Positions 1 through 50,464 of a stretch of 64,000 bases of DNA are shown piece after piece. Source of the DNA: an uncultured archaeon (GTDB lineage Archaea > Aenigmatarchaeota > Aenigmatarchaeia > QMZP01). How positions within the stretch are numbered: position 1 is the first letter of the stretch; the number at the start of each line of letters is the position of its first letter. The notes under the pieces were generated by a model that was not told the DNA's origin, ran no database searches, and saw only the letters and a program-made list of their open reading frames with translations. The stretch covers positions 11,715 through 75,714 of the forward strand of contig CAZAEI010000002.1 in NCBI GenBank assembly GCA_964484305.1, in the 5' to 3' direction. The position numbers and the translations under genes are program-made.

Positions 1-259
1 AACTGGATTGCTGCCATTGTGCTGCTGGCCTGCCTGGCATCGGCTTCCCTGAGCTATAGGCTGTTCCTGAGTAAGGGGCGTGTAAAGAAGAGCATTGAAG
101 GCCTAGAGAGAGAAGAGTAGGGTTAATGAAATTCTCAAGAAGATGCAAAGGGACTACTACCTCGGGAGCCTGGGAAAGTCTCAGTACGATATAATGGTGG
201 AGTCCTGCAAGAAGAGAATCGGTTCTATAGAAAGGGATATCTCCCGCCTTGCCGCATAA
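1..259 (+). pseudogene. 3' end of a gene for a TM-anchored (surface) protein, with the reading frame broken in an AG-repeat. The TM anchor is in frame 1 (1-120) and the homologous cytoplasmic tail is in frame 2 (107-259).
   Basis: Frame 1 reads NWIAAIVLLACLASASLSYRLFLSKGRVKKSIEGLEREE* (a hydrophobic helix followed by a basic stretch). Frame 2 continues REKSRVNEILKKMQRDYYLGSLGKSQYDIMVESCKKRIGSIERDISRLAA*. That tail aligns with the tail of the 1,962-aa protein (LREEKAKTTRMMALLESQYRQKIISREAYESLKNRSEQRLAELDKKI). The frames switch inside tagagagagaagag (about 104-120). Confidence 0.4.
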
Positions 260-309: not shown

Positions 310-3300
310 CTATGCCCTCAGGGACTCCCTTATCTTCTTGTCAAGCTCGGCCAGCCTCTGCTCGCTCCTGTTCTTGAGGCTCTCATAGGCCTCCCTGGAT
401 ATAATCTTCTGCCTGTACTGACTCTCGAGGAGAGCCATCATCCTGGTTGTCTTGGCCTTCTCCTCCCTGAGCTTCTCGGTCTCCAGGCCGGCGCCCCTTA
501 CTGTCCCTGCAACCTGCCTGGCCTCGGAGAGCCTTCCGCGTAAAATCAGCGAAAGCCTCTTGTTCATCTTTCTGTAGGCAAATACAAGGAATGCTATTAC
601 AGCCAGGACAACCAGGGCGAATATGAGCAGTGTCAGTATCTCAGGTGGCAGCGCGAAACCGGTCAGGAGCTTGTTGAGGAGCTTCTCGGCATTGTCAAGG
701 AGTTCCCAAGCAGCGTAGACAGAGTCAAGGGCAGCGTCATAGAGGTTCTCCCTCAGGTAGCCCTCGGCGAGCTTTATCTCGTTCTCGGCATCGTCTAAGA
801 GGTCGTCAATCTCGCTGGTGTCGAACCCGGCCTCCTGGGCCTGCTCGGCCCTGTTCCTGAGTTCCTCGAGCTTTGCCTTGAGCCTGACGAGCTCGAAGTT
901 TATGAGGTCCTTCTTGGATGTGAATATCCTGAGCAGGAACTCCTCTTCGTCCGTGGACTCGGTGGAGTGGGCAACCACCCTGACTGTCCTCTCTCCTGAC
1001 TCCCCCCTCTCGGGGGTTATCTGGACCGTGATAATCGCGCTCTCTCCGGCCGCCAGGCTGCTTATGTTGGCGGGGTTGGTTATCACCCACTCACCAGGGA
1101 TCCCCTGTAAACCGAGCCATATGTTGTGGAGAGGGCCGCCCACTGCCTCGACCTCTATGTTGAACGGCCTTGGAAGGCCTGCCATAACGCCAATCTCATC
1201 AGGAATCCTGGTTATGTTTATCTTTCCCGAGGGACCGGCCGAGGGTGGGGGGGCTCCCTCACCCTCCCCTCCGCCACCGGGCTCCTCCGGGGGGGCCTCC
1301 CCTGTCACACTGAATCCTGCGCTGGCAGGGGCGGACGGTATGGAGGGGTCATAGAGGACTCTGACCTCCACGGTGTATCCCCCGGGTGGCTGGTGGGAAT
1401 ATATGAACAGGCCGTTTGATGGGCGGAATGTCATCTCCATGCCTGCCCCGATGTTGGGGGTTATCTGGCCGGAGTCCCAGGAGCGGTCAGGGCCCTGTAC
1501 CCAGTAGTCTATAATCACGTCCTCGTTGTCGACCTCGCCCTTGTTCCAGACCGTTATGTTGAAATACATGCTGTTGCCCGGGGCTATCTCCTCCTGGTCA
1601 AGGATGACCTCGACGTCATAGGGCCCTGAGGAGGATATCCTGAAGGCGAGGATGTCATGGGTCTCCTTTTCGCCGAGACTTACCCTCAGGAGGGCAAGGT
1701 ATGTCCCCGTAAGGACGCTGCTCAGAACCTCGGTGAGGGAATAGAAGCCCGCTGCTGTGTGGTTGAAGTCATCTATGTCATACTCCTTCCAGAGGTCGAG
1801 GTTGTATCCCTCGGTTCTGTATATGGTGAGGTTGATGCTATCAGGGTCCGCGGGCTCGTTATAGTTCTGCAGGACAACCACTGATACAGGCATGGCATGG
1901 TCAACCACGCAGGGGCTCGGTATGGCAAGCTTTCCCGTGAGCTCCATGTCTGCGGTCACGTTGAAGGTCACAGCAGTCTCGTTGCCCGTCCAGATATCGA
2001 ACTCCGGGTCGTACCAGGAGCCATTGGAATAAATCGTATACTCCCCCAGGGAGGCGTGGGAGGGTATCACAAAGATGTTGTCAGAGACCCAGCCCGTTTC
2101 ATCGGTCACATACTCCCTGCCCGAGAGCATGTAGACGCTCCTGTTGTCGGGGTCCTTGACAGTGAGGTTTACAGGGGCCCCGGCAAGGGATGCCCCGAGG
2201 TAGTCATGGGCCCGGTAGTTTATGCTCTCCCACCTTCCCTGGGTGGTGTCCGGCATGTCAAGGTAGACCACGTAGCGGGCGTGTGTCTGGAATAGGGAGG
2301 TGTTGGTGGCATTTACATCATAGGTGTCGTTGGCAAAGACATAGACCGTGTAGTTCCCTCTCTGGGTACTGTTGCCGCTGAAGTCGCCCGGATAGGTTAT
2401 CTTGTAGCAGAACATGTCACCGGGGTCATTGATTGCATAGACGCAGCCCGGGGGGAAATCCGGGTCCCTGTGGGAGAACTGCAGCTCGAGTGTGTCGTTG
2501 GTCCCGTCGGGCCTCTCCACGGTCACTATCACGTCGTCAAAATCTGCTCCTGACTGGCTGGTCACGTTGATGTACATTGTCGCGGTATCGGCCTGGGACT
2601 GCATATCAGGGATTATGCCAATCTCGATAAGGGGCTCCACAAAGGGGTTGAGGACAATCTCCAGGGTGATGTTGTCCGGGTCAGCCGATGCCTCTGTGGT
2701 GTTTATGGTATAGTTGGTCAGGAAGAATCCGGAGCCCGCATCCCCGCCCATGTCATAATAGATAGTGAGATTTGTGCTGTTCTGCTTGCTGATGTTGTGG
2801 CTGCTCCAGCCCGGGGTGGTGTGGTTGGCCCCGCCAGGGGGATAGAGCGAGAGGTTGAGCTGTATGTTTCCGGTGTTGCCTATACTAACGTTGCAGACAA
2901 TCCCTGTGTTGGGGCTCTGGGCATGCTCGCAGTGGGTGGGGTAGGCTGTCCAGGAGCCGTTCTCGGGCACGGTTATGTTCAGGTAGAGGCTCTTGTTCCC
3001 GTTGTTGCCTGAGGTGACGTTCAGGGTTCCGTTGTAGCAGCCCGGGTCGAATCCGGGGGGTATGGTCGCGTTTACCTTGACTGTCCTGAAGTCCCCGGGT
3101 GTCATGTTGAAGGGATAGCTCTGGTTGAAGCCCATGGTGAAGTTCTCGAACTCCCCGCTCAGGGTGAAGTTGACGAAGAGCGCGTCGTCGTTGCCTGTGG
3201 AGCGGAGCGTTATGTTGCCGACAAGGATGGAGGTGCCGTGCTCCATGGTCCTGTCAAAGCTGTCCTCAAGGACCTCAAGCGTGACATTGGAGGCCACGCT

Positions 3301-6207: not shown

Positions 6208-8034
6208 CTATTTCCTGTCTCCCTCTTTGCTGTTCTTTTTCACCCCAGTCTCGCCCCTAGACTTCCCCTTGGGGATGAGCCTCCTGACCTTCTCAAAGGC
6301 CTTCCTGCTTATCAGGCCCCTCATAAGGGAGTCCTCGAGTTGCGAGAGCAGGCTCGCCTGCCCGTCGCCAGAAGGCTTCTCGGGCCTGGGTTTGGTGGAG
6401 CCCTCTGGTAGGGGCTTTGCTTCTGGCTTCTGCTCGACCGGCTTCTCACCTGGCAGGGTCCCTGCCTTCTCAGGCTTCTCACCGGTAGGCGGTGCCTTGG
6501 AGGGCTGCGACTCAGGGGACTTGGCCTCACTTGTCTCATCAGGCCCCCCGCCCGCTGCAGGTGCTGACATGGGAGGCGCGGGTTCGCCGGCCCTGGCGGT
6601 CTCACCCGGAGAGGTTGCCTTTTCAGCCCACTCCCGGGGGCTCGGGGCGCCGGGGGTGGCCTCGGATATCTTATTGTCAATTTCCCTGAGCCTGCCCAGG
6701 TTTATCTGCTTGGTCTTCTGGTATTCCTTTTCGGGGAGGGCCCCTGCCTTGAACTGCTCGTCCAGCATGGCTATCAGTCCCTCGATTTCGGTCTTCTGGG
6801 ACCCGAGCCTCTGGACATCGGGGCTTGTCCCTGCCCCGGTCTTTATTGAGGCCAGCTCGGTCTCTGTGGTGTCCCTGAACAGCTCGAGGTCGCTCTTCTC
6901 GGCATACTTCTGCATCTTTATGTTGATATCGTCCAGGGATTTCATCATCTCCTGGGAGAGCTCGTCCAGGGTGTCCTGCTTGGCCTTGTATAGCACGAAC
7001 TCGTCCAGGCGCTTGTTGAGCTCCATGAATATGCCGTCTATCTTGTCGGCAATCCTGCTTATCCTCTTTTCCCTGTTCTCGATTTCAAGGAGCCTCTTGG
7101 CAGCCTCCTTGGAGAAGTTGACAATCTTCTCAAGGCTTCCCAGCCTCTTGAGGACATTCTCTATCTGGCCCAGCCTCTTGAGCATGAGCGAGGTCATCTC
7201 ATCCAGCTTGTCGATTCTGGCCCCGTGCACCTTTATTGAGGCGTCCTCCTCCCTCATGGCCTTGAGGAACCTCTGGGGCCTCATGTCTCCCAGGGACTCG
7301 TCAACCCCGGTCACCCTTATCTCGGACTCGCTGAGCCTCCTGTCCAGGCCGGACACGTTGGAGCGGATTTCCCCCACCTCCTCAGTGAGCCGCTGCATGC
7401 CCTCCCTTCCTGTGGAGCGCTCGTCCTTCATGGAGTCAAGGTAGGCCCGGACCTTTTCGAGCTGTACCTCGATCTTGTCCACCCTGGGCGCGACCTCTAT
7501 TCCCTGGGGCTTGATTTCCTTCAGTGTCTTGGTTAGTATATCCTTGATTTCATCCGCAGTGTACCTGAGGGTTCCGGGCTTTCCCCCTCTGGCAGCGCCC
7601 GGGGCCTTCTCGGGCTTCACCTCCCCGACCTCGCCGGCGATGTCTGTGAGGGGCTGGGGTATTCCTGCGTATTCCGTGGACTCGGCCTCTGGTGTTGTGA
7701 CTGGAGGGGCTGTCTCGGCAGAGGGTGCGGCAGGGGCTGTTGGAGGTGCTGATACAGCTGGGGCAGGCTCGGGTTCCTTGGCCCCCCGGGCCTTCCTAGG
7801 CTTCTCTGATTTCTTTGCGGGCTCTGGCTTCTCCTTCTCGGCCTTCTTGGCCTCGCTCTTCTCGAGCCTCTCTATCATTTTATTGAGCTCCTCGAGCTTC
7901 TTCTGGTTCTTGCCCTTCACCTCATTGTAGTGCTCCTCGGTTATGCTGGCCTCCCTGTAGGCCTCCTCGAGTGTGGAGAGCAGTATCTCGATATCCTCCT
8001 TGTGCTTCTGAAGTTCCGTAAGGGTTTCTTTCAT
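6208..8034 (-). CDS. 608-aa cytoplasmic coiled-coil protein with P/A/E/K-rich linkers and three SHOCT-like motifs. No signal peptide or TM is visible.
   Basis: SD GGAGGTG lies 5 nt upstream of ATG 8034. Heptad-like, charged sequence runs through the centre. The motifs are ASITEEHYNEVKGKNQKKLEEL, GALPEKEYQKTKQINLGRL and GLISRKAFEKVRRLI, which resemble the G-x-I-[ST]-x-x-E-[YF]-x-x-x-K consensus of SHOCT (PF09851). The antisense ORF 6134-7444 is a shadow ORF. Confidence 0.85.
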   Translation of the reverse strand: MKETLTELQKHKEDIEILLSTLEEAYREASITEEHYNEVKGKNQKKLEELNKMIERLEKSEAKKAEKEKPEPAKKSEKPRKARGAKEPEPAPAVSAPPTAPAAPSAETAPPVTTPEAESTEYAGIPQPLTDIAGEVGEVKPEKAPGAARGGKPGTLRYTADEIKDILTKTLKEIKPQGIEVAPRVDKIEVQLEKVRAYLDSMKDERSTGREGMQRLTEEVGEIRSNVSGLDRRLSESEIRVTGVDESLGDMRPQRFLKAMREEDASIKVHGARIDKLDEMTSLMLKRLGQIENVLKRLGSLEKIVNFSKEAAKRLLEIENREKRISRIADKIDGIFMELNKRLDEFVLYKAKQDTLDELSQEMMKSLDDINIKMQKYAEKSDLELFRDTTETELASIKTGAGTSPDVQRLGSQKTEIEGLIAMLDEQFKAGALPEKEYQKTKQINLGRLREIDNKISEATPGAPSPREWAEKATSPGETARAGEPAPPMSAPAAGGGPDETSEAKSPESQPSKAPPTGEKPEKAGTLPGEKPVEQKPEAKPLPEGSTKPRPEKPSGDGQASLLSQLEDSLMRGLISRKAFEKVRRLIPKGKSRGETGVKKNSKEGDRK

Positions 8035-8134: not shown

Positions 8135-11100
8135 TTAGCCTCCCAGCTTCCTTATCCTGTTCTTCACCGAATCTATGTAGGTCTTTGACATGGTGAACAT
8201 GGTCTGGCTTATCTTGTCCCTGGCCAGCTTGAGCTCGAACTCTATGTCCGTGGTATCGATGCCGCGGGCCTTTAGCTCCTTGGCCTTCTGCATCAGGGAC
8301 GTGACCTCGGTGTCGTACCTTATGTACTCGTCTATGTCCTTGTCGCTCAGCCTGCCTGTGTCGTGAAGGAGCGGCCTGAACTCTATGAAGTATGGCTTGC
8401 CGTGGTTGAATTCGGCGTTCTGGACCATGCCGGTCCCGGTCCTGAGCTTGGTCGTGGTCGAGGCATACTGGAAACCGTACTTCTGGGTGACCCTCCTGAT
8501 GTCGCCTGTGTACTTCGTCCTCATCTGCACCTCTGTGGATATGTTGGCCCTGATGGCCCCCTTGAAGTCCATGAGGACCTGGGATATCAGCCAGAGGCCG
8601 ATGCCCCACTTTCGGAACTCTCGGCAGCCCCTCTCCAGGGCCACGTAACCGCCCTTGCCACCGTACTTGGGCAGGAGGCGGTGGACCTCGTCATAGACTA
8701 TGAAGAGCTTTATCTTTGGAGATTCGGGCCAGGGTATCTTGAACATGTCAGCTATGGTCTTCCTGACAAAGATGTCGAGCTGCGCCGGCTCCATCTTGTC
8801 TATCAGGACGACCGTTATCTCTCCCGGGTTCATGTAGTTCCTGATATCGATAGCGGTGTTGGGGTCAGTGATTCTCGTTATCCTGCCCTTGTAGCGCCTG
8901 GCATCCCCGGGCTTGAGACCGAACCTGGGGTAGAGCTTCAGCATCCTCTGGTCCCTGCAGGGCCTGAGGAATCCCGTCCACTGGCAGGTCGGGTCAAAGA
9001 CAATGACGGGGATGTTCCTCTTGAGCATCTCCTCGACCACAATCATGGAGGAGACCGTCTTGCCCGCGCCCGTGGAGCCTGCGGAGATGCCGTGGGTCTG
9101 GAGCTGGGTCATGTCAAAGTAGGCAAGCATGTCGGTCTCCGCAACCTTGCCCACCACAAAGGCGTTCGGGCCTGCCTGGGGGAGCTTCTTGAAGTCCATG
9201 GGGAAGATGTACCTGGTCTTCTTCTTTTTCTTGAGCTTGATGTAGCGGTAGCCGTACCTGCCCCCATAGGCCGCGGGCACGACAAAGAAGAGGATTACAT
9301 AGGTCAGCCAGTTCCAGAATATCGCGCGGAGGGCCGCTATCACGGGCGGGAGCTCGGTCACGTCAAAGGCGTCGGCGGCGAAGGCGAACTTGTTCCCGTG
9401 CCAGTATGTCACGTTCGCCTCTATCACATACCTGTCATATGGGGTGTCCGAGGGTATGGTTATGTTCCTCCTAAAGGTAAGGCTCTGCTCCACTGCAACG
9501 GTCTCCTTGAATATCGTCATTATCTCGTCTGTGTTGAGGTTCTTGATGGTGTACTGGACAATGATGTCCTCTATGGTGGCTGTCTCTCCCATGTTGACGA
9601 GGGTGACCTCGTACCTGAACTCCTCGTTCGGGGCCACTGACTTGGTGAGGGACTTTACCTGGACGTCGAGGAGCGGGCTCGGTATCTTCTCCACCTTGAT
9701 GGTTACAGGGGTCCTGTGGGTTATGCCGAAGCCCTCCACATTGGTTATGATGTCCCCGGTGTAAACCCCGGGCTGGGTTGTCGGGAGGGTGTAGAGCTTT
9801 ATCTTGCTCACACCCACAGACCTGCCTGATATGGATATGCTCGGGCTCTCTATCTGGACCATGTCCCATATCAGGCCCTCGACAGTGAAGTTGGCTGTTA
9901 TGGAACCTGCGCGGTTGTTTATTATCTCCATGGAGTGTATCTCGTACTCGCCCTGGGAGAGGGTCACATAAATCAGGGTGGTCTTGACCTCGATTGGCCC
10001 GGAGACCGTGACGGCCTCTGCTGCGGCTCCGCCCCCACCCCCGCCTCCGCCCTCCTCGGGCTTCGGCACTTCGGGTATCACAATCGGGCAGTCGCCCGGG
10101 CATCCCGCATTGGACTCCCCCTTGGCTGACTCGCACACATCGTCGCCGCATATCCATTCGGCCAGGACAAATGCCCCGTTCAGGCTGCTCATGTTGGCTG
10201 CTATCGAATAGAATGTCGAGTTGACCGTGCTGGCAATGGCGACCCATGTTCCCTGGCAGCCCTCCATTGGAACCCAGTCGTCGCACTGGTATATGCCGAG
10301 GTTCTGGAGCATGAAGTCCGAGAGCTCGCACTCGCCCTCAATATAGCACTCCTCGCAATCAAGCTCCAGGCTCGCATAGCTGTAGTTCACGGGCTGCGTG
10401 TATATATAGTAGCCCTTGAGGGATTTCTGGGGCATCTTGACCCCCGGTATCTTGCCGAAGAGCACGGGGTTGTAGACATCATAGACCAGCTCTGAATCGT
10501 AGAGTATGACGGTCTCGTTCCTGAAGGTGATGTTGATGTCATAGGCCCTCATGTCAAGGGTCTCGTTGTAGTGCCCTGTCGCTCCCTCGGTGGTGAAGTT
10601 GTAGGCCTCGTATGATGTCCCTGCAAGCAGGAAGGTGAAGTTCAGGTGGAAGTGTGGCTTGTGGAGCTTCTCCATATTCACGGAGTCGCCTGACCACATC
10701 ACGCCCGGGAATATCTCAAAGCTCTTATCAGAATAGTTCCAGTTCCCGGAGAGGTCCCAGGCAGTGGCATTGACATGGTAGATGCCGACCTGGCTTGTGT
10801 AGTTCATGGCCACCACGAACCTGTAGAGGTCGCCGAGCTTCTCAACAAAGGTTGCGTTGAAGTCCATGGTGGAGTTGTCAGGGAATGTTACCTCCAGCTC
10901 TGCGCGCTCGACCCCGCCTGAATCGGTCGCGTTTATGTAGATATAGGCAGTGGAGTTTGCCGGGACCCTGGGCGGGACCTCGATTGCGACTTCCGGGGCA
11001 ACCCGGTCTATATAGATGACTGCCTTCATCTCGATGTCATGGAGCCATATCGAGGCATTCACATAGAGGGCACTCACATTGAGGTCATAGCCCTTGTTCT

Positions 11101-14100
11101 CGCTTATGTTGGGCGCAGAGAAGTTCAGGTGCCAGAGGCCTGTGTAGTTGGAGTAGTTGGCCGAGGTTATGTTCAGGTGCCAGCTCCCCGTGGCATTGAA
11201 GAGTGTGAGGTTGAACTCCACGCTGTGGTTCAGGGGCTCCCCTCCATAGGTCACGTTCACCTCAACCTGGATTGCGTCGCTGGCTGTGACGTTCTTTGTC
11301 GGCTCTGCCTGGGTGGGGTGGGTCAGGTCAAGGGAGAAGGGGAAGGCATTTACCGTCACCCAGGTCTCCTGGTAGGTGGGCTCGCCGGCAGAGAGGTTCT
11401 CGGTCCTTATCAGGCTCTGGTAGGTGGTGATGTCATCGATATGTGGGAGTGTGTAGTTGACCATTATCGTGTCAGAGCTTGCTATGTCCAGGTCGAGCTC
11501 GTCCTTGTCCAGGGGTATGTAGGGGGTGCCGTTCCCGGACTGGATGACCTCGAGAATGAGCCTTGCGTTGCCTGTATTATGGACAGTGATGTAGCCCATG
11601 TTGCCGCTCGTCTCATGGCTCAGGTTGATTGTGATGTCCTCGGGGTCGTGATACCAGGAAAGGTTTATGGGAACAGTCAGCACTATGAAGACCGTGTCGT
11701 TTGAGCCGCCCGCCTCAAGGGCCTCCACGGTGCCTGCATACTCACCTGCCTTGTACAGGGGCGGCACCGTTATGGTGATGTTCACCAGCTGGCCCTGGCC
11801 GGGCTCAAGAACAGAGATGTTCAGGGGATTGAAGCCCACGGTGAAGTTCTCGCACACCTCTCCCCAGATGCAGCTGTAGGTGATGTTGGTGGCGTTGACA
11901 TTGCCGATGCTGTAGATGTTCATGGTCTTGTTCCCTGTGCCCCCGCTCCTTACAAAGTAGGGCAGAGTGGACTCGAGTATGTCTATTGCGGGGTTCGGCT
12001 GGACCATGACCAGGATGGAGGTGAGGTTGGTTCCGTTGGTGTAGCCATTGAGCTCTGTCCAGTTCGCTGTCAGGTTCACGGTGTAGTTGCCTGGCCATGT
12101 TGATGTGGCCACTGTCACCCGGCTCTCGTTGGACTTGGTCTCGTGCTTGAGCATGTCACTGAAGTTGAAGGTATCCGGGGCGGCTGACCATGAGCCTGGG
12201 AGCCCCAGGGTGACGCTGAGGTTGAAGAGCCTTGCCCAGTCCGGCATGACAGTGAGGTTGAAGTCAAAGTCCTCTGAATCAGACAGGGTTATCCCTGTTA
12301 TGTTGACCTCGCTCACATTGGTTGTCATTATCAGGTGGGTGGTCCCTGCGCCATAGAGCTGTATCATTGACGTGCACCCGCTCAGGCCCGCAGTGTCATT
12401 GGCGCAGATGTAGAGGTCGTGGTAGCCCTCAAGGCTCGAGTTGTATGTGGCGTGGTAGAAGGGTTTTGCAGTGCCGTTCATCTGCTCTGTGTAGGCGCTG
12501 ACATCCAGGACAGAGTAGTTGAGCCTGGCGTCATAGGAGGCGTTGCCGTCCATGGTCATGTTTATGTGCTGGTAGCCCGGGAGGGTGAAGGAGGCGCCCC
12601 CTGCCACGGCGTCTATGGTGGCGCTCTGGCCACTGGGGATGGAGATGTTGTCAGCCACGAGGAGGCTGTTGACGGCCAGGTTGAGGCTTATCTCTGTTCC
12701 GTTGTTGTTCTCGATGGTAATGTTGAAGTAGAGCATGCTTGCGTCGTAGAGGCTGTTCACCTGCTCGGTGTAGTTGAACCCGGAATCGCTCGTGGCGCTG
12801 TGTATCATCTTTGATTCATTGATGTATCCACAGTCGGTGGGCCTCACCACCCTTATCCAGGCGTCACTGACCTCGAAGTTGTCGGTGATGTTTGCCGATA
12901 TGCTGACGTTCTCATATCCGGCCTCGAATACAAGGGGCGTGGCATTGACATCATCTATAAGGGGCGGGGTGTCGGTCACATTGAGCCAGAGGTCTGTTAT
13001 CCATTCCTGGGGGTCTGCTGTCTCGTTCCTGAGAATGAGCTTCACGTAGTACATGCCCTTGGGTTTGGCAACCGGGACAATATAGCTTATGGTGGTGTTC
13101 CGGCTGACCTGCTTGCCGAGTTCGAAGTACTCCGGGTCTGCCAGGACCATGTCAGAGCCGTTCTCGGTCCTGTAGACCTTTATGGCAATCCTTGAGTTGC
13201 CTATATTGGTTGTGGTTATGTTGCCTATCGCTGCCGAGGCGTTCAGGAGTGCGAGTATGGGGTTCTCATAGCTGGAGAGGCTCCCGGGGGTCCTTGTCCA
13301 GCTCGTGTTCTCGGGTACATTGACCGTGAGAATCATGTCATCGGGTTCGGTGTTGCTGGCCGAGGCCCTGACCACGGTCCAGTAATCCCCGGGGGGCTGG
13401 CCTGCGGGAATGTCTATGTAAAGGCTTGAGGAGAACTGGTAGCCCGCCTCAAGCCTGCCCCAGGCAGCGGGTATGATGTCGACCACGCACTCCGGGCATT
13501 CTGAACTGAGGTTGCCCCCGACCATGGTTATGTCTATGTCATCCACGGCATCATTTCCAGAGGAATAGACCGTGAAGTTGCCGACATAGTAGAGGGTACT
13601 CTCGTGCGGGACGGTGTTGGTCAGCTCATCCTCCACTATGTCCAGTATGGGGTTTGAGGACACGAAGACGTCGCTCCAGTTCAGGGTGGAGTTCAGGGTA
13701 AGGTCAGGGTCTGTCCAGTTTGCGTATATCATCACCCTTATGAGCATGGGCGGCGTGCCCGCAGGCACGTCCACTGTGAGGGGCCAGGTATAGGTCTCGT
13801 TGACAGAGAGGTTGCCTATATCCTGGTAGGTATCATTTATCACCAGGGTGTCATTGGGGTCGTCCATGCTTCTGAGTTCTACATAGTATCCCGTGGGCGG
13901 GCCGAGGTTGGTGAAGTTGACGCTCAGGTTGAACTGTGCCCCATGGGACTGGGTTATGCCTGACATAAGTATGGTCTTGTTGAGCTCTATCAGGCCTGTT
14001 ATCTTGCCCCAGACATCGAATGTGCCTGCATAGAGGCTGGCGTTGTTGTATTCAGGTCCGGTGTCCTGGGCCCATATCCATACATGGTAAAGACCGCTCA

Positions 14101-17100
14101 AGACTGGAACATAACTGACCCTGTAGAGGTCTCCCCCGAGGCTCTCGTTGGTCATGGTCACGTTCTCATGTGTCTGGTTGGGGAGAAGTATGTCAGCCCA
14201 TACCTTGTTGATGCCCACGTCATCGGTCACGTTGGCTGTGATGTTGGTGTAGTTGAGGTTGGCCTCGATGCTGGTGTCGGGGACAATGGATGTGTTGGTT
14301 ATGACAGGCAGGTTGACATCCCGGATGGTGATGATGCCCTGAGCCTCTGAGATGCCGGCCTGTATGAGCCGGCTGGTGTTGTCTGTGATGTTGCACTTGA
14401 AATTGAGGTTGCCCTTCTGGCCCGGATCAAAGGTATGGTTGATGTAGCCGGAGGGATTGGTGGTGAAGTTGTTTATGAATACCCAGGGCAGGCCCGCGGA
14501 CTCCCAGTAGTAGTAGAGCTCTACATCATAGTCCTCCACGGGCCCCCCGCCGGCTGCCTCGGCGTACCTTACCTGACAGAACACGTCAAAGGGAACCGGA
14601 TACGGGAGAAGGGTGTAGTTTGCAGGGGAAACATAGTAGACATCAACAACAGCCTCGATTGTAATGAGCACGGAATTGTTGCCAGCGGCATAGTACTGCT
14701 TGGTGGCATTGGATGTGATGGTCCTGTTGCCCGCCTCCTGGCCTGTCAGGGGATAGTTGGGATATGTCTGCATGTCAGTGAGCATCCCGGTCTCGTTCCA
14801 CCACTCGACATCGCACCCGGAGATGACCGAGCCTGCCTCGTCTGTTATGTTGACGTCCAGGTCGACCGTGCCTGTCTTGGGGTGCTTGCTCTCGTCCACA
14901 GGGGAGGTTATGTTAAGGATGAGCACACCTATAACATCGAGGTAGGTCTCGACTGTGTCTGAATCGCTTATGCCCGCCTTGGTGGCGTTGATGTGTATCG
15001 TGTAGTTCCCTGGCGCGATGTTGTCTGTCACATTGTAGGTTATGTTGCAGCGGCCCCACTGGTCTGTCGTGCAGTTGCGTATGAAGCCCGAGTTGTTGTA
15101 GAAGCTGACATTGGCGCCGGAGGCGTTGCCTATCTGGGCGTCGTTCACGTGGACGCAAATCTCGGTCTCGTGGGGGTCGTAGCTATCGTTCCTGTATATG
15201 GTTCCATAGCTCTTGGTTATCTCGTCTATTATGAGCTGCCTGTTAACCGTTATGTTGCTCATGCGCTCTCCGGCAGAGACATTGTAGTAGAGGACATCGT
15301 CATCTGATATCTTGCAGGATATGTTGTAGGGGCCAGCGTCCTCCCATTCTGTGTACCAGTACCACGTGGCGTTGCCCTGCCAGTCTGTGTCGTCACTGGC
15401 GTTGTACACGCCGTTCTTGTAGAAGTCCACGTTGTAGCTCTCTATGGACTGGCCGGTATTGATGTCAGAGACGTGGCAGGTAATCCAGGTGTTCATTGCC
15501 CCTGCGTCGAATTCTGTCCCGTTGGGGGGCCACATGGTGTCTATACCTGCCCATCCGTATATCAGGATATCGGTCTGGTTGGTTCCCTTGTCGTGATGCG
15601 TCTTGGTGGTGTTTATCCTGAGGATGTCAGGGCCGAGCTCGTAGGATTCGCCTATATACCAGCTCCTGTCATAGAAACCGAGGCTGCCGTTATCGGTGGT
15701 GTTTATGAGGTCCCAGGACTCGTTCTGCCAGGTGAGAGTGGAGTAGTTTATATAGGTCCCGCAGTCGTCATTGACCGTTGCGTTGAGCGTGTATGTCAGG
15801 TTGCGGTTGAGGACGTCCCCATCCACGGGTGTTGTATAGTTCGCATAGAGCTGGCCAAAGACCTGTAGGTTTTTCGTGCTGCTGTTCAGGGGCTGATAGC
15901 AGGAATCCAAGGTCTCCAGCTTCCATTTCTGGATTCCTGCAGGTGTGGCACATCCCGGATTGTGATTCACGTCGCAGTATCCTGCCCCGGTGGTGGTGCA
16001 GTCATAGAAGACCGTGAAGTTCTCGTAGTCCTCGGTGATCCAGAACCCGGTGTCCACTCCGTCCGGGTATTTGTCGAAGGCTGCGTCCGTGTCCTCAATC
16101 CTGATGTTGAGGAAGGCGTTCTGGGCACCCACCCTCCTCACCGTGGTGTTGCTCGCGGGCAGGCAGTCTGTGCCGTCGCAGAGGTAGACCGTGACGTTGT
16201 CCTCCTGGAGATAGAACTCATGCACGCCCGCTATGTAGTGGAGGTAGAGCGAGAACCTGGCGCTTGCGTTGCCCCCTGAGCCGTTTGTCACTGCTATGGA
16301 TATCTGCTGACTCCCCGGTGGGGTGAAGTCGAGTCCTCCCTGGCGCCTTGCGTCGTAGCTCGCGTTTTCGCCGGGGGCAACGCTGAGATTCTGGGCCACT
16401 GTTATGCCGTTCACCTCGAGGTCGAAATAGAGCGTGCTCCCGTTCTCGTTCTGGAGCGTGACATTGAACCTCTCCACATCATAGAACGCATCGATGTAGT
16501 GGCTGGTAGAGAAGCTCTGGTAGAGCATGGATTGGTTCAGGTAGGTTGTGTAATTTGCCTCCCCGGAGCCCCCCTGGCCGTCCGTGACAGTGAAGTTTAT
16601 GTCCTGGCCCCCTGGCAGGGTGAATGACGCGCCGCCTGATATGGCGTCCACTGTAGCGTTCTGGCCGTCCTGGACGCTCTGGTTGTCTGCGACCTGGACC
16701 CCGTTGACAGAGAGATTGAAGTACATCACAGTGCCGTTCTGGTTATGTATGGTTATATTGAAGGTCTCGAAGAAGCCTGCCTCGTCAGTGGTCTCGGTGT
16801 GGTTGAAGCCCGAATCTGCCTGGCCAGAGGCATCGTGTATGGGTGCCTCGCTCCAGGAGGTGTTCTTGAGCTGCAGGGAATCATCGGTAACGGTCTTGTT
16901 GCTGTCGTCAGTGAAGTTGAACTCGTCCTTGGAATTGAACCTGAACTGGTTCCATCCCATATCTGCGCAGGCAAAGTGCTGGTCGAAGTGAACCTCGTCA
17001 TCCCCGAGGTCATACTCCCAGGTCTGGTTAATCAGGAGCCATTCATCCCAGTCTCCCTGGGAATCGTTCCACTGCCTCTTCCAGAGCGTTATGTTGTTGT

Positions 17101-20100
17101 AGTTGCTGTCGGCGTCTGTTATGACAACCCAGACGTAGAAGTTCTCGCCCCAGCCGCCCAGCTCCTTGTCGATTCCCGCGTCCTGGATGTCCGGGGCCAG
17201 GGCAATGAAGAAGGCGTCTTCCCTGAGGGTCTGGTTGGGACCGTAGTATTCCTTGTCTGCATCCATGGTTATGTTGTACCAGTCGGTCCGCTTATATGTC
17301 TCTGTCCAGGTGTAGTTGTACCACCCCTGGCTCTGATTGGCCTGGTCCTGGTTTTCTGGCCACTGGGTTGTTTTCCTGCTGAACACCCACTGGACTGTTG
17401 AGTTCTCAACAGGGTTGCAGTCATCTTCTATGTAACCCACGACATCGAGCGGGGTTCCCCAGAGAATCCCCTGGCCGTGCGGCTCATGGATTGTCATTAT
17501 CAGGGTTGAGTTGAGGTAGACCGTGTATTCAGTGGAGTTTATGGGCTTGTAGCAGACATCCTCCTTGAGGCCTCCCACGCCGGCCTTCCAGTAGTGGGGA
17601 CCGACCTTGTAGTCGCACTCGGGCTGCGGCACCTCATCCATGAAGTCATATAATATGTAAGCAGAACCATTGTCAAACTCGTACTTACCCACATCCCAGG
17701 TATCCAGGGAGTGATTGGTTGTCACCCAGAAGGTCGCGTTTGTTGCGCCAATGGTGCCGGTCTCTGCGTAGTTATTGGTGTCGTTGTCCCATACCCTCAT
17801 AATCAACTGGTAGTTGTCAGAGCCGTTCCTCCATATATAGGCCTCGTGTCCCTGCTCGAGCAGCATGTAGGCATTGTCCCTTTCTATTGTGAAGTTGCCG
17901 GGCCCTGTCTCATTGGTGAAGGGCGGGCTTCTGTTGTCCGTGGCCTTGAAGTAGAACTCCCAGTCATCTATGTTGCCGCAGTCTATGGGGTCATCCCTCC
18001 AGGAGAGGTTGATTATCTCTCCCACAGCCGTGTCGGCTATGGTGGAGTTCTTGGGAACCCCCCACAACGAATCTGACTGCTTCTTTGCGTAGAGCTTTAC
18101 CTCAACCTCATCATAGTCCTCATCCGTGAGGTTCACGCTGAAGTGGAACCGCTCGCCCCAGCCCCCGGGGTTTGTCAGTGCAGTCTCCTGGGTCAGGACA
18201 GGCTTGGTTACCACCTCGAAATGGGATTCCCATGTGGTTGCGTTGCTGTAGTGGTAGGCCATGGAGGAGTACATGGTGTTGTTGTACCACCTCGCCTTCA
18301 TGCCGGTGGTGTTGCGCTTGCATCTGTAGTATATCGTGCCCTCTATGGTGTAGTAGAGGCAGGGATAGACATCACTGTCATCCACATGGGTGAAGTTGAA
18401 CGTGACATTCACCCCTGTCTTGGTGTCCCCGCAGTCGTCCTCGACAAGGCCCTTGGTGGATATGTTCTCGACCCCGCGCTCGTACTCCTCATCCTGGCCA
18501 GGCTCCTCTATGTCCCCGTAGAGGCTTCCCCATATCTCCAGGGTGTAGTTCTGGCTGGTGTTCACAGCCGCGTAGCAGGAGTCTGTTATGCCTGCCTTCC
18601 ATTCCTGGGGCCCTACCTCATACTTGGGGCCTGAGCAGCCTGGGTTGAAGTAGAGCAGGGCGTGGCCAGATGTGTTGGTCTGGTTCAGGTTCCCTCCATC
18701 AAAGACTGAGTTGTTGTAGGTGGTCCAGAAGGTTATGTCCGTCCCTGTAAGGACATGACCCACCCTCACGGTGTCGTTGGTATAGACCGTGTAGGTGGCC
18801 AGGTGGTTGGAGGAGGAGTCGTCCCTGTCTATAACAGACTCGTTCCCGAAGCTGTAGGTTATCATGGCCGTGTCTGCGGTGAGGTTGGGGCCTGTGATGT
18901 TGTCAGTGTAGTTGACATTGGTCTCGTCGTCTATCATGAAGTGGAAGCTGTTGTCTGTCCCCATGTCTGAGCAGTTGAACTCTGTCCCGTCCAGGGCGTC
19001 ACCCACGGTGAGGTTGCAGTAGTCCCGGCCCCCCCAGATTGTTGTCCAGTTCTTCTTGTAGTAGCTTGAGCCGCCGTCTGTGGAGACCCAGAGCTCGCAC
19101 GTCACGTTGTCCTGCTGGGTGTCCCATATCTTCACGCTGTAGGTATAGACCCCTCCCCAGGGACCCTCGCCGGGCGTGACATTCACCTCGCTTATGGCCG
19201 GCGGGGTGTTCTCGAGATAGAACCAGTCATCCCAAAACGAGGAATTGTCAGGCCTGTAATAGGTCTTGCTCGCATTTATCCTGACATCGTACCAGCCTCC
19301 CTTGTGGAATGATGTGTCCAGATCGTAATTATACCAGCCGTCTCCCTCATCCGCCGGCGTGTGGGAATCCCAGCTGCTGGTGGGGTGCTTGAACTCTATC
19401 GTGGTTGTGGTCTCGTTGACAAGCTGACTGCAGTCGTCTGTCACGTTGTACCTGCTGTAGAGCATATCCCCCACCGTAGAGGAGTTGCCCTGCTGCGGGG
19501 TATCGATGGTGGAGTTGAGACGGCCGTACACAGTCAGGGTGGTGGAGGAAGAGTTGCCTGCATAGTTCTCATAGCATTCGTCAAGCTCTATGCCGCCCTT
19601 CCAATCATGGGAACCCACCTCGTAGAGCGGGTCGCAGCTCGGGTCGAACCATATCCTCATGTAGCCGTCGCCTGAGGTCTGGTTCGCATGGCCGTCGTCC
19701 CAAGTGCCTGTATCAGAGCCGTTAAAGGTTACCCATATCTTGCCGTCAACGCCTGCAACAACGTTGGTGTAGCCCTTGTCCAGGTCCGAGAAGTACACGT
19801 TAAGGTAGGCGGTCTCCTGACCCTCCCTGTCCACCTCATCATCTGACGCGCCCGCATAGGTATAGACCCTGTCCTTGCCCATGTCCCAGTTCTCGGTAGT
19901 GGTCTCGTTGGTGTCGTTCCACTTGTCTGTGACGTTAATCAGGTAGTAATTGGTGCCCTGTTCGCCACAGTTGAATGTGTGCACAAAGGTGAAGAGCTGC
20001 TCATTGGGGTTGTTGCGTATGGTGTAGTTTATCAGGGTCCAGTTGTCCACGCCCACGCTCTTCCATAGGGTTATGTTCACGGAATCCGAGGCCCCCTCGT

Positions 20101-23100
20101 CATCCTCGAAATAGTAGTGGAAGGTGTGCTTGGCCCCCCAGCCGCCCCCTATCGGGTCTATGGTGTGGGGGTTTGTCCACCACCTTATGGACGGCACCTG
20201 GGTCAGGACAAAGGACTCGTTGTCCACCAGGGCGGATGAGCTGTTGTAGAAGTTCTTAGTGGCATAGAGGGTGGTGTTGTAGACGTTCAGGCAGGTGCCT
20301 GCCCAGTTTGAGGTGTTGTCAGGCCCCCAGAAGGTGCAGTTGTACCATCCACGGGTTCCTCCTGACTCGAACTCGTCCTCGATTCCGCCCCCGTCGTTGC
20401 CTGTATCGTCGCTGCACTCGAAATTGCATGCCGGGGATATCGCCTCAAAGGTTACGGTGGCGTTGTTGACCCCGCCAATCTCTCCGGCGCATTCGTCATA
20501 CACGCGGCCCCTTATGGTGATGTTGTCGAGGCTTCTCCTGTAGTGCTCCCCATCGGGTATGGTCAGGGTATAGTTAAGGGGGCTGGTCCATATGTTTACA
20601 GTGAAGTTGTCCGAGACATTCTCTGCATAGCAGCCCGGGTTGGAGGGGGTGCCCTCGATATAGCCCCTCCAGAGCTGGGGTCCTGTATCGTACTTGGGGC
20701 TGCAGCCCGGGTCGAACTCATAGGTTATGTAGCCCTGGGGATTTGACTGGTTGACGGGGCTGCTTATCCAGTTGCCTGTCATGTTTGTTATATTCACAAT
20801 TGACCTCTCGTTGGGTATGTTGGCGTACTGCTGCTTGACAAGGTCGTATATCCTAAGCTGCAGGGTAATGGTTCCGCTTGGCCTGTAAACCCATGAATCG
20901 TTGCCCTGAACGTATTCAATACTTGCGTCGTTCTTGGTCATGGTGTAGTTCCTGGGGCCGATCTCATCGGTGTCGTCAGGCCCTGGAGGGTCGTCTGTGG
21001 CATTGAACTTGAACTCCCTCACCCTGGTCAGGTTGTCGCCCAGGCCGTTGGCGCAGTCAAAGTTGTCTATTGTGAATGTAAGGGTGGTGTTGTCGCAGGG
21101 CTGGCACTCCTGGTAGGGGTCTTCCCCGTTGGGGGCTATCAGTGGGGACCCCCAGCTGGCATCCCCGTACTTCCTCTCATAGGCATACACCCTCACTGTG
21201 TCGCCATCCTCGTCCGAAACATTGACCGAGTAGTTGAAGGATTCCCCCCAACCCCCGCCTGCCGGGTCAACGCCGTAGCCTGCAAAGACCAGGACAGGGG
21301 CGGTCTCCACGCTGAAGGTGTGGTAGTCATAGCTGTGGTTTGTGTTGTAGTAGGTCCTGTTCGAGGCCATGGTGACGTCATACCATCCCGCCTTCATGCC
21401 GCTTGAGTTGAACTCGCAGCTGTACTGGCCGTCCCCGAGCGTCTGGGTATCGTTGCAGTAGTATTTGTCACCATAGAGCTCGCTCTCTATGATGAAGTAG
21501 ACACTTGCATCGCTCACGTTGCTGCCGCAGCTGTCCTGAATCGTGGCGTTGAGGGTTATGTTCACCCCCTTGTTGAACTGGGTGTAGTCAGGATAGGTTA
21601 TGTTGTTGAGCAACTCGTCCATGATTATCAGGGTCAGGTTGTGGCCGGTTGTGTTCATCTCGTAGTGGCTGTCTGTCACGTTGGCCCACCACTCCTGGGG
21701 CCCGATGGAGAAGGAGCAGTCCGGCTCGAAGAGGTAGTTGGCGTGGCCTGTCTGGTTGGTCTGGTTCAGGGTGACGTTAAGGGAGCTGTCGTTGTAGGTC
21801 ACCCAGAAGGTCACGTTGACTCCGGGCGGGAACCAGTTCTGGAGCGTGTAGTTGTCTGTGTCATTGACCAAGACCGTGAGGAGCTCTGTGTCGCCGGTCA
21901 TGTTGACCGTGGTCCCGTTGGGGGTGATGAAAGCTATGGAGGTGTTGGCCACCTCGAGTGTGGGCCCTGTGTAGTTCGTGGTGTTGAAGTAGTTTGAGGG
22001 CTCCCCGTTCTGGATGTAGAACATGTAGGTGTTCTCGCCGATGTCGTCCCCGGTGAAGTCCCGGAGCTCGACCCAGCAGGTCTGGCCCACCACGCCGCTT
22101 GGGTCGTGGAGGGTCATGTTGCCCCTGAAGACCCAGCCCTGGCCGTCGTACCTGTTTATGTACAGGGAACAGTTGACAGTATCAGAGTCCGGGTCTGTTA
22201 TGTTCACAGAGAAGTTGAAGGGCCTGGTCCAGCCGTCTGCCTGGGGGACGACCTGCTGCTGGGACCAGGTGGAGTTGAGGTTCTCGAGCTGGAACCAGTC
22301 CTGGAGGTGGGTCCTGTTGTCATTGAAATAGGCCCTGGAGGAGTTGAGCTGGATGGACCACCATCCCTCCCGGTGGTCTGTGGAATCCCAGGTGCAGTTG
22401 TAGTAGCCCTGGGTGGGGTCGGTCTCGTTCTCCACCGGGGTGCAGTCGTGCCAGATTCCATAGGGTGATATCACCTGTATGGTTATGTAGGAGTTGTTGA
22501 TTATGGCCTCGTCCGGCCTGTCCAGGGAGCAGTCCGAGGTGGTGTTGAGCCTTACCGGGACGGGGTCGGTGACATTGAAGGGCTCCTGGTAGGCGGGGAG
22601 GTCGATGTTATTGAGGAGCTGGCCGTAGACGTTGAATGCCTGTGATGTGGAGTTCTCAACATCATAGCACTGGTCATTCCAGACCCCACCTATCCACTGC
22701 TGGGCACCGAACTTGTAGAAGCAGTTCGGATTGAAGTAGAGGTTGAGGTAGCCCTGGCCGTTAGTGGTGTTCGTCCATTCTGTGTCGAAGTCGCTTCCTG
22801 TGGAGGTTATCCAGAATGTCCCGTTGACTCCCTGGGGGACAGGAACATTGCCGGCATCGGTATCGTTTATCAGAACCTGGAATAGCTCGACCCCTGGGCC
22901 GCCTGAGCCGTTCCTGTAGACATCCACGCCATATCCCTGTTTCTGGATAACGGTGACATTATCACTCTGGACCGTGAAGTTCTGGGGGCCGAGCTCCACG
23001 CCGTAGCCGTCCTCGTCTGTGGCATTTATCTTGAACTGGCTGTGCCATCCGCTGGGTGATATATCCCCGCAGTCAAAGGTTGTTATGGTGAATGTGGCAT

Positions 23101-49710: not shown

Positions 49711-49729
49711 CCCGTGCCTGTCTCTCTGG

Positions 49730-50413: not shown

Positions 50414-50464
50414 CTGGGATTTTCTCTGCTTTAGATGAAATAGGTTCGCTATATCTGCCACCAA

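Follow-up and report, generated by a model that had tools for sequence, protein, structure and literature searches.

A cytoplasmic coiled-coil protein with three SHOCT-like hairpins is encoded directly downstream of an ATPase-tailed giant surface protein in Aenigmatarchaeota

The dominant association at the locus described here is that of a gene of the CORE family with the gene of an ATPase-tailed giant surface protein, directly downstream of which it lies, and it had been overlooked in the original prediction. The CORE protein of the stretch of 64,000 nt that was analysed (the window), P0001, carries three SHOCT-like hairpins, and a hairpin of the same kind ends the cytoplasmic tail of P0002, the surface protein encoded on its other side (Table 1). 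The gene belongs to a tiny, probably symbiotic archaeon. Our tentative proposal, to which we give slightly less than an even chance, is that P0001 is a cytoplasmic adaptor or scaffold of a SPEARE-like apparatus, in which the CORE domain would bind the ATPase tail of the giant and the hairpins would dock the tail of P0002. It rests on architecture, module homology, the restriction of the module to few proteins, gene order and co-occurrence, from which we infer all of the physical interactions.

This genome encodes two ATPase-tailed giants and no more, and an HMM of the CORE domain matched just two of its proteins, one beside each giant. The CORE gene came directly after the gene with the ATPase tail in 15 of the 16 loci fetched; at the 16th (L037) the upstream side is cut by the contig start. 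Phylum-wide, an ATPase tail was found just upstream and on the same strand in 120 of the 150 CORE places listed, the median distance between the two being 194 nt. Counts tallied by hand from the phylum-wide tables over 301 genomes gave 125 genomes with both CORE and the ATPase tail, 6 with CORE only, 9 with the tail only and 161 with neither (Fisher p = 5e-65). In the window, the ATPase tail contains the Walker A motif GSTGAGKT, and the P0001 gene, whose ATG is preceded by the SD sequence GGAGGTG, adjoins a giant with one TM segment and a HerA/VirB4-like ATPase, as would be expected for an accessory subunit of a SPEARE-type apparatus. The giant itself carries no hairpin motif, the hairpin HMMs giving no match to its 13,455 residues at E ≤ 1e-3.

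Table 1. Position of the features in the window (residue numbers are those of the encoded protein).
Feature	Position	Strand	Description and basis
Stalk-TM fragment end, frame 1	1..120	+	stop at 118-120; whole-contig ORF of 97 aa
Third long-hairpin tail, frame 2	107..259	+	sequence; hairpin-2 profile E 3.3e-3
P0002	310..6198	-	1,962-aa surface protein directly downstream of P0001; translation; rich in N-glycosylation sequons
P0002 tail hairpin	325..474	-	residues 1909-1958, long type, basic; hairpin-2 profile
P0002 TM anchor	574..639	-	residues 1854-1875; AF2 of the final 204 residues has an unbroken helix at 94-142
P0001	6208..8034	-	type A CORE-family member, 608 aa, cytoplasmic coiled coil; ORF, homologues, AF2 model
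Basic C-terminal tail of P0001	6211..6276	-	residues 587-608, net charge +5
Hairpin 3	6277..6363	-	residues 558-586 (H558-571/H577-586), short canonical-type SHOCT-like, net charge +3, pLDDT 84-92
Linker 2	6364..6657	-	residues 460-557, disordered, P/E/A/G/K-rich; pLDDT <50 over 463-550
Hairpin 2	6658..6822	-	residues 405-459 (H405-429/H435-459), long SHOCT-like, net charge -1, pLDDT 93-96
CORE domain	6835..7557	-	residues 160-400, long heptad-periodic helices, common to all family members
Linker 1	7558..7833	-	residues 68-159, disordered, P/A/E/K-rich; pLDDT <50 over 73-157
Hairpin 1	7834..8022	-	residues 5-67 (H5-27/H33-67), long SHOCT-like, net charge -3, pLDDT 91-95
Giant surface protein	8135..48502	-	13,455 aa, directly upstream of P0001; ORF
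TM segment and HerA/VirB4-like P-loop ATPase tail of the giant	8138..9337	-	Pfam DUF87 5.9e-7, HerA_C 1.3e-6

P0001 had been predicted to be a cytoplasmic protein with a heptad-like core flanked by spacers rich in P, A, E and K, and both parts of this description held. Kyte-Doolittle analysis in 19-residue windows found no TM segment in P0001 (top mean 0.4). In an AlphaFold2 (AF2) model made with 45 homologues, the protein forms three helix-loop-helix hairpins with 5-residue loops (pLDDT 84-96), and the core, modelled with moderate confidence (pLDDT 60-86, pTM 0.24), forms helices at residues 183-248, 253-298, 301-377 and 380-398. Hydrophobic occupancy of heptad positions a and d in the core helices was 0.84, 0.71 and 0.73, compared with 0.41-0.51 in shuffled sequences (p ≤ 0.004). 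The linkers contain 20-22 % proline; linker 1 (P 0.20, A 0.18) varies in length and sequence among homologues. The three motifs originally named map to residues 29-47, 431-449 and 573-587. We collected 46 homologues with identities of 26-72 %, the few of them with a taxon name being labelled Aenigmarchaeota or Aenigmatarchaeota. Conservation is strong in the core and the hairpins, with 40-70 % identity between families, and columns of hairpin 1 were invariant or nearly so in alignments of 19 and of 45 homologues, while the basic C-terminal tail is confined to close relatives and missing from most homologues. A Foldseek search of the PDB with the full model returned no informative match, its results being generic helical hairpins with no E-value under 1, and PDB sequence searches with the family profile and the hairpin-2 profile gave nothing useful, the lone match being a ribosomal protein (E 0.028).

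At the level of sequence profiles, the hairpins are divergent, distant relatives of the SHOCT domain. The label SHOCT-like given to them at the outset is thus sound for profiles (hhalign 95, 94 and 70 %, without gaps) but not by the Pfam SHOCT threshold: PF09851 found no match at E ≤ 10 in P0001, P0002 or five motifs excised from the window, and relatives scored 12-22 bits against a gathering score of 27 bits, hairpin 2 giving sub-threshold matches in 9 of 25 homologues (best E 9e-4). When aligned to a reference set of 13 bona fide, over-threshold SHOCT domains of the same phylum, hairpin 3 reached 95.2 % (E 2.5e-8, 29 gapless columns), hairpin 2 93.7 % (E 1.9e-7, gapless), P0002-type tails 82.6 % (E 1e-5) and hairpin 1 69.9 % (E 4e-5, gapless); the gapless alignments of the hairpins span 24-29 columns. 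The top three local matches of this set to the full-length family profile were the three motifs, with scores of 30.5, 28.6 and 24.5, and none of them fell within the core of ~240 residues. In 150 column shuffles (mean 11.9, maximum 24.9), no shuffle scored as high as motif 3 or motif 2, and one scored as high as motif 1. Both AF2 and hhalign showed the form of a SHOCT domain, two amphipathic helices with a short turn and without indels. Hairpin 3 always has the turn glycine (G573), and most homologues have it in hairpin 2, as do 18 of 19 partner tails; hairpin 1 has A-S in its place, and the P0002 tail of the window has K. Hairpin 3, the P0002 tail and the tail at 107-259 lie at most 50 residues from the C-terminus, as does the domain in 89 % of SHOCT members, but hairpin 1 is N-terminal and hairpin 2 internal. 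The original prediction also took the SHOCT domain to mediate oligomerisation, which is a hypothesis: the sole published test, made on the canonical domain by Eberhardt et al. (2013), saw no oligomerisation (PMC3581485).

We then examined the hairpins as a module of this genome. By hhalign the three motifs of P0001 are homologues of one another (98.9 % for hairpins 1 and 2, and 96.6 %), and a profile of the tails of the 1,962-aa family aligned with hairpin 2 at 98.3 % (E 1.6e-14, 54 gapless columns) and with hairpin 1 at 97.8 %. We dropped as circular a motif HMM made from the four copies of the window and used homologue-based profiles instead; the hairpin-2 profile used for searching comprised P0001 relatives and the window's own P0001 segment, and included no neighbour tails. 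Among the 14,926 six-frame ORFs of the genome it matched four proteins only: P0001 itself (hairpin 1 at E 2e-11), the P0002 tail (E 8.4e-6, 24.4 bits), a 407-aa coiled-coil protein (C8_3190_4410, E 9.5e-5) and the frame-shifted tail at 107-259 (E 3.3e-3). The next match had an E of 3.7, and the reversed proteome gave nothing better than E 3 (~7 bits). The search and this null together indicate that the long hairpin is not a generic feature of the charged helices of the proteome, and they confirm the early observation that similar motifs end P0002 and the gene at 107-259. Searches by tblastn with the P0002 tail matched the hairpins of P0001 relatives in nine other genomes (E 4e-6 to 6e-4); single-sequence phmmer gave weak links for hairpin 3 and the 107-259 tail, and profiles were needed to connect them. 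The long hairpins of P0001 and of the P0002 tail share the same AF2 geometry (25/5/25+ residues). They also have in common a stretch that canonical SHOCT lacks, in which the residue seven places past the conserved Tyr, a heptad 'a' position, is Asn or Ser; in hairpins 1 and 2 and in the tails this extension of helix 2 reads Asn/Ser(+7)-L(+11)-L/I(+14)-I(+18), which brings the module to ~50 residues.

P0002 consists of a signal peptide, NEW3/CARDB-type domains (Pfam NPCBM_assoc, 5e-21), a three-helix stalk, one TM segment and a cytoplasmic tail of 87 aa that begins with K/R residues and ends with the motif. The AF2 model of its last 204 residues has helices at 147-171 and 177-203 joined by a loop, that is, a hairpin of 25/5/27 residues (pLDDT 91-95). 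A relationship between the extracellular stalk and the terminal coiled coil of the giant ('G-x-D-T-[ST]...') was considered and rejected, as BLASTP produced no alignment. The order P0001-P0002 is kept in L002 and 11 related genomes, and a P0002-type module lies 0-16 kb downstream in 52 of the best 90 CORE places phylum-wide; the 1,950-aa gene and CORE are on separate contigs in some genera. The third hairpin tail (107-259) lies in frame 2, behind the stop of frame 1, and is probably a frame-shifted gene remnant, because the contig holds only a stalk-TM fragment with a glycosyltransferase fragment before it. This copy of the cluster contains no MinD/ParA gene; in L002 one follows the cluster.

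The distribution and the charge of the module bear on how it might act. Outside the operon it occurs on C8_3190_4410, on small TM proteins of contigs C7 and C1 and on the ~1,400-aa C2_5977 family, so it may be a general-purpose module rather than a specific docking code. Family mean net charges are -1.3 for hairpin 1 and -0.3 for hairpin 2, and P0002-type tails from 19 genomes average +4.7 (range +3 to +8). Anchoring to the membrane, with the hairpins bound to the inner leaflet and P0001 forming a peripheral membrane skeleton without heterotypic docking, would agree with the usual place of the module in this genome, close behind a TM helix, and with the basic charge of hairpin 3, the P0001 C-terminus (+3 and +5) and the P0002 tails, which fits anionic lipids. 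SHOCT-like bihelical domains (SHOCT_2, PF20612; DUF1707, PF08044) have also been predicted to be inner-leaflet anchors in the comparative genomics of Ravi, Aravind and colleagues (PMC11237479). However, hairpins 1 and 2 are neutral to acidic, which is unfavourable at anionic archaeal membranes, the conserved hydrophobic residues pack between the helices in AF2 and would leave little hydrophobic surface exposed, and the co-variation described below between scaffold hairpins and a hairpin-tailed neighbour would go unexplained. We consider anchoring unlikely.

This co-variation separates two types of CORE protein. Type A, which has hairpins, is followed by a ~1,950-aa hairpin-tailed surface protein in the window, in L002, in L031 and in 11 relatives, whereas type B paralogues, one of which is encoded on contig C5 of this genome, have no hairpins, and none of the five type B loci whose downstream sequence extends to 6 kb or more had a hairpin-tailed neighbour. 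A simple co-evolution of scaffold hairpins and partner tails was not apparent, since the tails of family f6 lack the distal part of helix 2 and the scaffold hairpins retain it. We also discarded a second candidate docking pair: the TAIL2 module, found at the C-terminus of the type B CORE protein and in the tail of C2_5977, is common to both in this genome only and is missing from their homologues in relatives, which indicates module shuffling. That such modules move, that the hairpin sits on several unrelated proteins and that it carries Asn at a heptad 'a' position would all suit a generic cap for homo-oligomerisation, P0002 tails and P0001 each clustering with themselves and sharing the motif by common descent and domain shuffling inside the gene cluster rather than through mutual contact. 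Asn at this position is classically linked to in-register homodimers, as in GCN4-type coiled coils. Such self-association seems to us distinctly improbable, since the tight phylum-wide order of giant, CORE and 1,950-aa protein and the presence of the tailed neighbour with type A but not type B argue for a joint function, and opposite net charges favour hetero- over homo-pairing.

The adaptor reading, in turn, draws on the pairing of CORE with the ATPase tail, the homology of the modules, their co-variation, their specificity and the complementarity of their charges. Given the obligate gene pairing, the CORE domain (residues 160-400) would most likely bind the cytoplasmic HerA/VirB4-like ATPase tail of the giant. 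The three hairpins, on flexible linkers of ~90 residues, could serve as tethered docking modules, the slightly acidic long hairpins 1 and 2 pairing with the basic hairpin of the same type that ends the P0002 tail; this pairing would link P0002, on the inner side of the membrane, with the giant and its motor anchor. Hairpin 3, which is short and basic, and the likewise basic C-terminus may contribute self-association or contact with the membrane. We infer that surface-protein tails would dock onto the scaffold through the hairpins, and this gains indirect support from the co-variation of the scaffold hairpins with the hairpin-tailed neighbour. It is very improbable that P0001 is instead a substrate, plug or chaperone of the ATPase, translocated for example through the giant as through a straw, since its ~190 disordered residues and basic C-terminus, and the proposal that nanohaloarchaeal giants are secretion channels driven by VirB4/TraG-like ATPases (PMC10266531), are set against a strong conservation of core and hairpins and a 1:1 pairing with the ATPase gene that are typical of fixed subunits and not of effectors, against the many homologues without the basic C-terminal extension and against type B paralogues that end differently.

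Among the candidates for host contact in DPANN archaea, giant ATPase-anchored surface proteins stand out most, and their mode of action is under dispute (PMC6642349 versus PMC10266531). A CORE partner, found in ~40 % of the phylum genomes sampled, offers a handle on what the motor connects to. The SHOCT-like module has thousands of prokaryotic carriers and, to our knowledge, no demonstrated function. The locus is a natural test bed for it, in which a soluble protein and the tail of the protein encoded next to it in the operon both carry the module, with opposite net charges, and it could thus serve to decide between docking, self-association and membrane anchoring. On a more far-reaching view, which we regard as doubtful, the CORE protein would be the cytoplasmic hub of an undescribed envelope machine widespread in the phylum, its core clamping the ring ATPase where a giant surface fibre ends on the inside and its tethered hairpins forming a modular, charge-matched docking code by which other surface proteins plug their tails into the motor. 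If true, heterotypic protein-protein docking would be the first defined function of the SHOCT-like module, an open question since 2013.

Several known systems resemble parts of this locus. The commonest sub-threshold Pfam match of the excised hairpins was the C-terminal half of GvpG (PF05120, profile positions ~31-66; 12/25, 16/25 and 4/20 sequences, best E 6e-4), a helix-turn-helix of the same kind. GvpG, however, is small and stands alone, no gas-vesicle genes lie near P0001, and membership was rejected with a best score of 20.3 bits against a gathering score of 30.6. The helical domain of CdvA (PF18822), whose protein-protein contacts build a sub-membrane polymer (PMC12818579), gave sub-threshold matches in 8/20 and 6/25 sequences of the hairpin 1 and hairpin 2 sets (best E 0.0024) and Foldseek E-values of 2.4-2.9 (PDB 9s9g and 9s9i). 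P0001 differs in lacking a PRC barrel and an E3B peptide, and since there was no PRC match and the helical-domain scores stayed below the 30-bit cut-off, membership was rejected here too. The best Foldseek look-alikes of the hairpins were in the ESCRT-I headpiece (Vps23/Vps28/Vps37; PDB 2f66, 2f6m and 6vme), with TM-scores of 0.84-0.88 over 60 residues at E >1. In this headpiece, hairpins of different proteins bundle side by side, which makes it an analogy of working only, as there is no sequence relationship and the locus has no other ESCRT components.

The SHOCT domain is likewise a module of ~30 residues with two amphipathic helices, a G-x-I-[ST] turn and, in helix 2, aromatic followed by basic residues, and it is frequently found at the extreme C-terminus, often just after a TM segment, on many unrelated proteins. 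The hairpins differ from it in their scores below the Pfam threshold, in the greater length (~50 residues) of hairpins 1 and 2 and of the tails, in the turn glycine missing from hairpin 1 and from the P0002 tail of the window, and in the presence of three copies, one of them N-terminal and one internal, on a single soluble protein in a fixed genomic context. As for the SPEARE or 'giant membrane-anchored' proteins of Nanohaloarchaeota, the descriptions of these (PMC6642349, PMC10266531), like the titles and abstracts retrieved by keyword searches, do not mention the CORE family or a hairpin-tailed 1,950-aa partner, and the nanohaloarchaeal loci described have a second VirB4-type ATPase gene downstream, unlike the present one. 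The 13,455-aa giant nevertheless shares their plan of a giant ectodomain, one TM segment and a cytoplasmic P-loop ATPase tail, of VirB4/TraG or HerA type in Nanohaloarchaeota, together with a terminal coiled coil, and similar sequences were noted in Aenigmarchaeota by Hamm et al. (2019).

P0001, a 608-aa protein, is encoded between the genes of two surface proteins, a giant of 13,455 aa and another of 1,962 aa (P0002), all three on the same strand, and its start codon is closely preceded by a strong Shine-Dalgarno sequence (GGAGGTG). Because two small genes of that strand lie directly upstream of the giant gene, the surface-protein cluster is at least five genes long. Few homologues of P0001 carry a taxon name, and those that do are labelled Aenigmarchaeota/Aenigmatarchaeota.

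Features of the cluster and of hairpin-bearing genes elsewhere in the genome (positions without a contig prefix refer to the window, C2:11715-75714)
Feature	Position	Strand	Evidence
P0001, 608 aa	6208-8034	-	ORF
Giant, 13,455 aa, flanking P0001	8135-48502	-	ORF
P0002, 1,962 aa, flanking P0001 on the other side	310-6198	-	ORF
Two further small proteins, 5′ of the giant gene	48457-49737, 49730-50464	-	weak Big_3_5 (Ig-like) and NEW3 matches
Multi-TM surface protein, 1,467 aa, convergent to the cluster, just upstream of the window start	C2:5977-10377	+	phmmer, HMM
Cytoplasmic protein, 407 aa, N-terminal long hairpin	C8:3190-4410	-	hairpin-2 profile
Small multi-TM protein, 130 aa, weaker post-TM hairpin at its end	C7:14483-14872	-	phmmer E 0.007
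Small multi-TM protein, 146 aa, weaker post-TM hairpin at its end	C1:15483-15920	+	phmmer E about 1

As the original prediction had described, P0001 lacks a hydrophobic segment (top 19-residue hydropathy 0.4), its core helices show significant heptad periodicity, and its three SHOCT-like motifs are present at residues 29-47, 431-449 and 573-587. AlphaFold2 (45 homologues) predicted three helix-loop-helix hairpins (5-27/33-67, 405-429/435-459 and 558-571/577-586; pLDDT 84-96), two disordered P/A/E/K-rich linkers (73-157 and 463-550) and, at moderate confidence, a core of long helices (183-398); the core domain (160-400) is here called CORE. Alignments of 19 and 45 homologues showed that the hairpins and the core are conserved while the linkers are free to vary. 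Hairpins 1 and 2 are clearly duplicates of one another (hhalign 98.9%, E 1e-17), and hairpin 3 is a shorter relative (96.6%).

To avoid circularity, we searched all 14,926 ORFs from a six-frame translation of the genome (1.19 Mb, 58 contigs) with a profile built only from hairpin 2 of P0001-family proteins. Apart from P0001, the best match was the 1,962-aa protein, in its tail (E 8.4e-6), followed by a cytoplasmic coiled-coil protein of 407 aa (E 9.5e-5) and a frame-2 tail at window 107-259 (E 3.3e-3); no other ORF fell below E 3.7, and the reversed proteome gave no match better than E 3. The motif is therefore specific and not a generic feature of charged helices, the outcome that would have refuted the original prediction. 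The 407-aa protein continues after its hairpin with a Pro-rich linker and a block of tandem ‘VPVIKE’-type repeats, and its C terminus is a coiled coil; no surface-protein gene adjoins it, and a neighbouring gene with large insertions resembles, by eye, that of a 2-oxoacid:ferredoxin oxidoreductase beta subunit carrying an intein. The two small multi-TM proteins listed in the table suggest that this organism uses the combination of TM segment and hairpin repeatedly, also outside the giant-protein clusters.

In single-sequence searches the tail of the 1,962-aa protein and hairpins 1 and 2 were already mutual best non-self matches; the motif was present in all tails of the 1,962-aa family gathered from 19 genomes, and their profile aligned with hairpin 2 over 54 gapless columns (98.3%, E 1.6e-14) and with hairpin 1 (97.8%). 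Using the window's tail as tblastn query, hairpins of P0001 relatives were matched in nine other genomes. In the AlphaFold2 model of the last 204 residues, a stalk of three helices leads into a TM helix, after which comes the same hairpin (a 25-residue helix, a 5-residue loop and a 27-residue helix; pLDDT 91-95).

Although the sequence of the copy at 107-259 is genuine and matched by the profile, it is not part of an intact gene, and the window edge does not cut the ‘partial gene’ of the original prediction. The copy lies in frame 2 behind a frame switch at the purine run tagagagagaagag, with a frame-1 stop at 118-120, and would form the hairpin tail of a 97-aa stalk-TM fragment, which comes after a glycosyltransferase-2 fragment (window 1-259(+); C2:11222-11831). 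It is probably a gene remnant, a decaying copy of the surface-protein C-terminal module. Between this remnant and the 1,467-aa protein, C2:10411-11208(+) encodes a 266-aa protein with a Walker A motif (GGAGSGKT), which by eye looks like a KaiC/RecA-type ATPase.

Regarding the nature of the hairpins, the Pfam SHOCT HMM (PF09851), the check named in the original prediction, gave no match at E <= 10 on the window's sequences. Relatives scored 12-22 bits, below the cut-off of 27, and CdvA and GvpG (C-terminal half) were equally weak Pfam alternatives. However, 13 SHOCT domains that do pass the threshold, taken from genomes of this phylum, aligned without gaps with hairpin 3 (95.2%, 2.5e-8), hairpin 2 (93.7%), hairpin 1 (69.9%) and the 1,962-aa-family tails (82.6%). 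When their profile was compared with the full-length family profile, the top three local alignments were the three hairpins, in register, and none fell in the ~240-residue helical core; scores were 30.5, 28.6 and 24.5, against 11.9 ± 2.3 for column-shuffled SHOCT profiles (maximum 24.9, just above the lowest score). At the profile level the relationship is solid, and we therefore call the hairpins divergent SHOCT-like modules, not PF09851 members. Only hairpin 3 has the short, canonical form; in hairpins 1 and 2, as in the tails, the module is longer, helix 2 running on past the conserved Tyr with Asn/Ser(+7), L(+11), L/I(+14) and I(+18), so that a heptad ‘a’ position is polar. The Asn at +7 is invariant in the long hairpins (N43, N445), with N, S or T in partner tails (window 310-474 and 6658-8022, and relatives), whereas in canonical SHOCT domains and hairpin 3 this position is hydrophobic and the module stops a little further on.

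The giant, in which no hairpin was found, ends in a TM segment and a HerA/VirB4-like P-loop ATPase (DUF87 5.9e-7, HerA_C 1.3e-6). In its own genome, such ATPase-tailed giants and CORE proteins both number exactly two. The other pair (C5:25998-36317) consists of a surface protein of 2,950 aa that ends in the same kind of tail and, encoded directly after it, a 489-aa CORE paralogue. In other genomes, too, the CORE gene comes immediately after the gene with the ATPase tail: this holds for 15 of 16 loci, and the 16th is cut by the contig start. Among 301 genomes of the phylum, CORE occurred in 131 and the ATPase tail in 134; by a hand tally from two tables, 125 had both, 6 CORE only, 9 the ATPase tail only and 161 neither (Fisher p = 5e-65). 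Among the matches listed, the ATPase tail lay just upstream on the same strand in 120 of 150 CORE places. As for other neighbours, an FtsZ gene (L001 4066-5172) lies directly upstream of the ATPase-tailed gene in the complete related genome CP070801, where the downstream 1,950-aa-type gene is shortened to 366 aa, and a ParA/MinD-type ATPase gene (L002 17930-18757) follows the cluster on a JGI contig; both gene types are absent from the window's copy.

CORE proteins fall into two types. Type A proteins, such as P0001, carry hairpins and are followed by a hairpin-tailed surface protein of 1,950-2,100 aa, a pattern present in the window, L002, a further locus (L031) and 11 related genomes from three families; phylum-wide, this stalk-TM-tail module lay 0-16 kb downstream in 52 of the 90 best CORE places (50 on the same strand, median 5.4 kb). 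Type B paralogues have CORE but no hairpins and mostly end in TAIL2, a different, helical module of ~65 residues without a Pfam match; downstream sequence of 6 kb or more was available for five type B loci, and none of them has a hairpin-tailed neighbour. The 489-aa paralogue is of this type: it lacks hairpins and ends in TAIL2, with no large tailed surface protein after it. From this co-variation, CORE goes with the ATPase, and the hairpins go with the tailed partner. The 1,467-aa protein bears a weak post-TM hairpin in its cytoplasmic tail and TAIL2 at its very end; as its ~1,350-1,440-aa homologues in relatives lack TAIL2, the module looks as if it had been shuffled in recently.

Gene order, co-occurrence, module sharing and charge, from which we infer the contacts, best support P0001 as a sub-membrane adaptor: CORE would engage the ATPase tail of the giant, and the tethered hairpins would engage the same-type hairpin on the second surface protein's tail. 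The one experiment done with a canonical SHOCT domain saw no oligomerisation (PMC3581485), a caution against taking binding for granted. The main rival is that the modules anchor proteins to the inner leaflet of the membrane, as predicted for SHOCT-like modules (PMC11237479). Hairpin 3 and the basic partner tails (mean net charge +4.7, range +3 to +8) fit such anchoring, but the neutral to acidic hairpins 1 and 2 (means -1.3 and -0.3) and the co-variation of hairpins with the neighbour fit it poorly. Independent self-association of the hairpins, or a substrate or chaperone role for P0001, is less likely.

P0001 had no PDB relatives by sequence or fold. Neither the CORE family nor its hairpin-tailed partner is mentioned in the giant-protein papers PMC6642349 and PMC10266531 or in any title or abstract found by keyword literature search, and the link of CORE to ATPase-tailed giants had been overlooked in the original prediction. 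The hairpin is a variant of a known module, and the giant is built like the SPEARE, or ‘giant membrane-anchored’, proteins already described (PMC6642349, PMC10266531).
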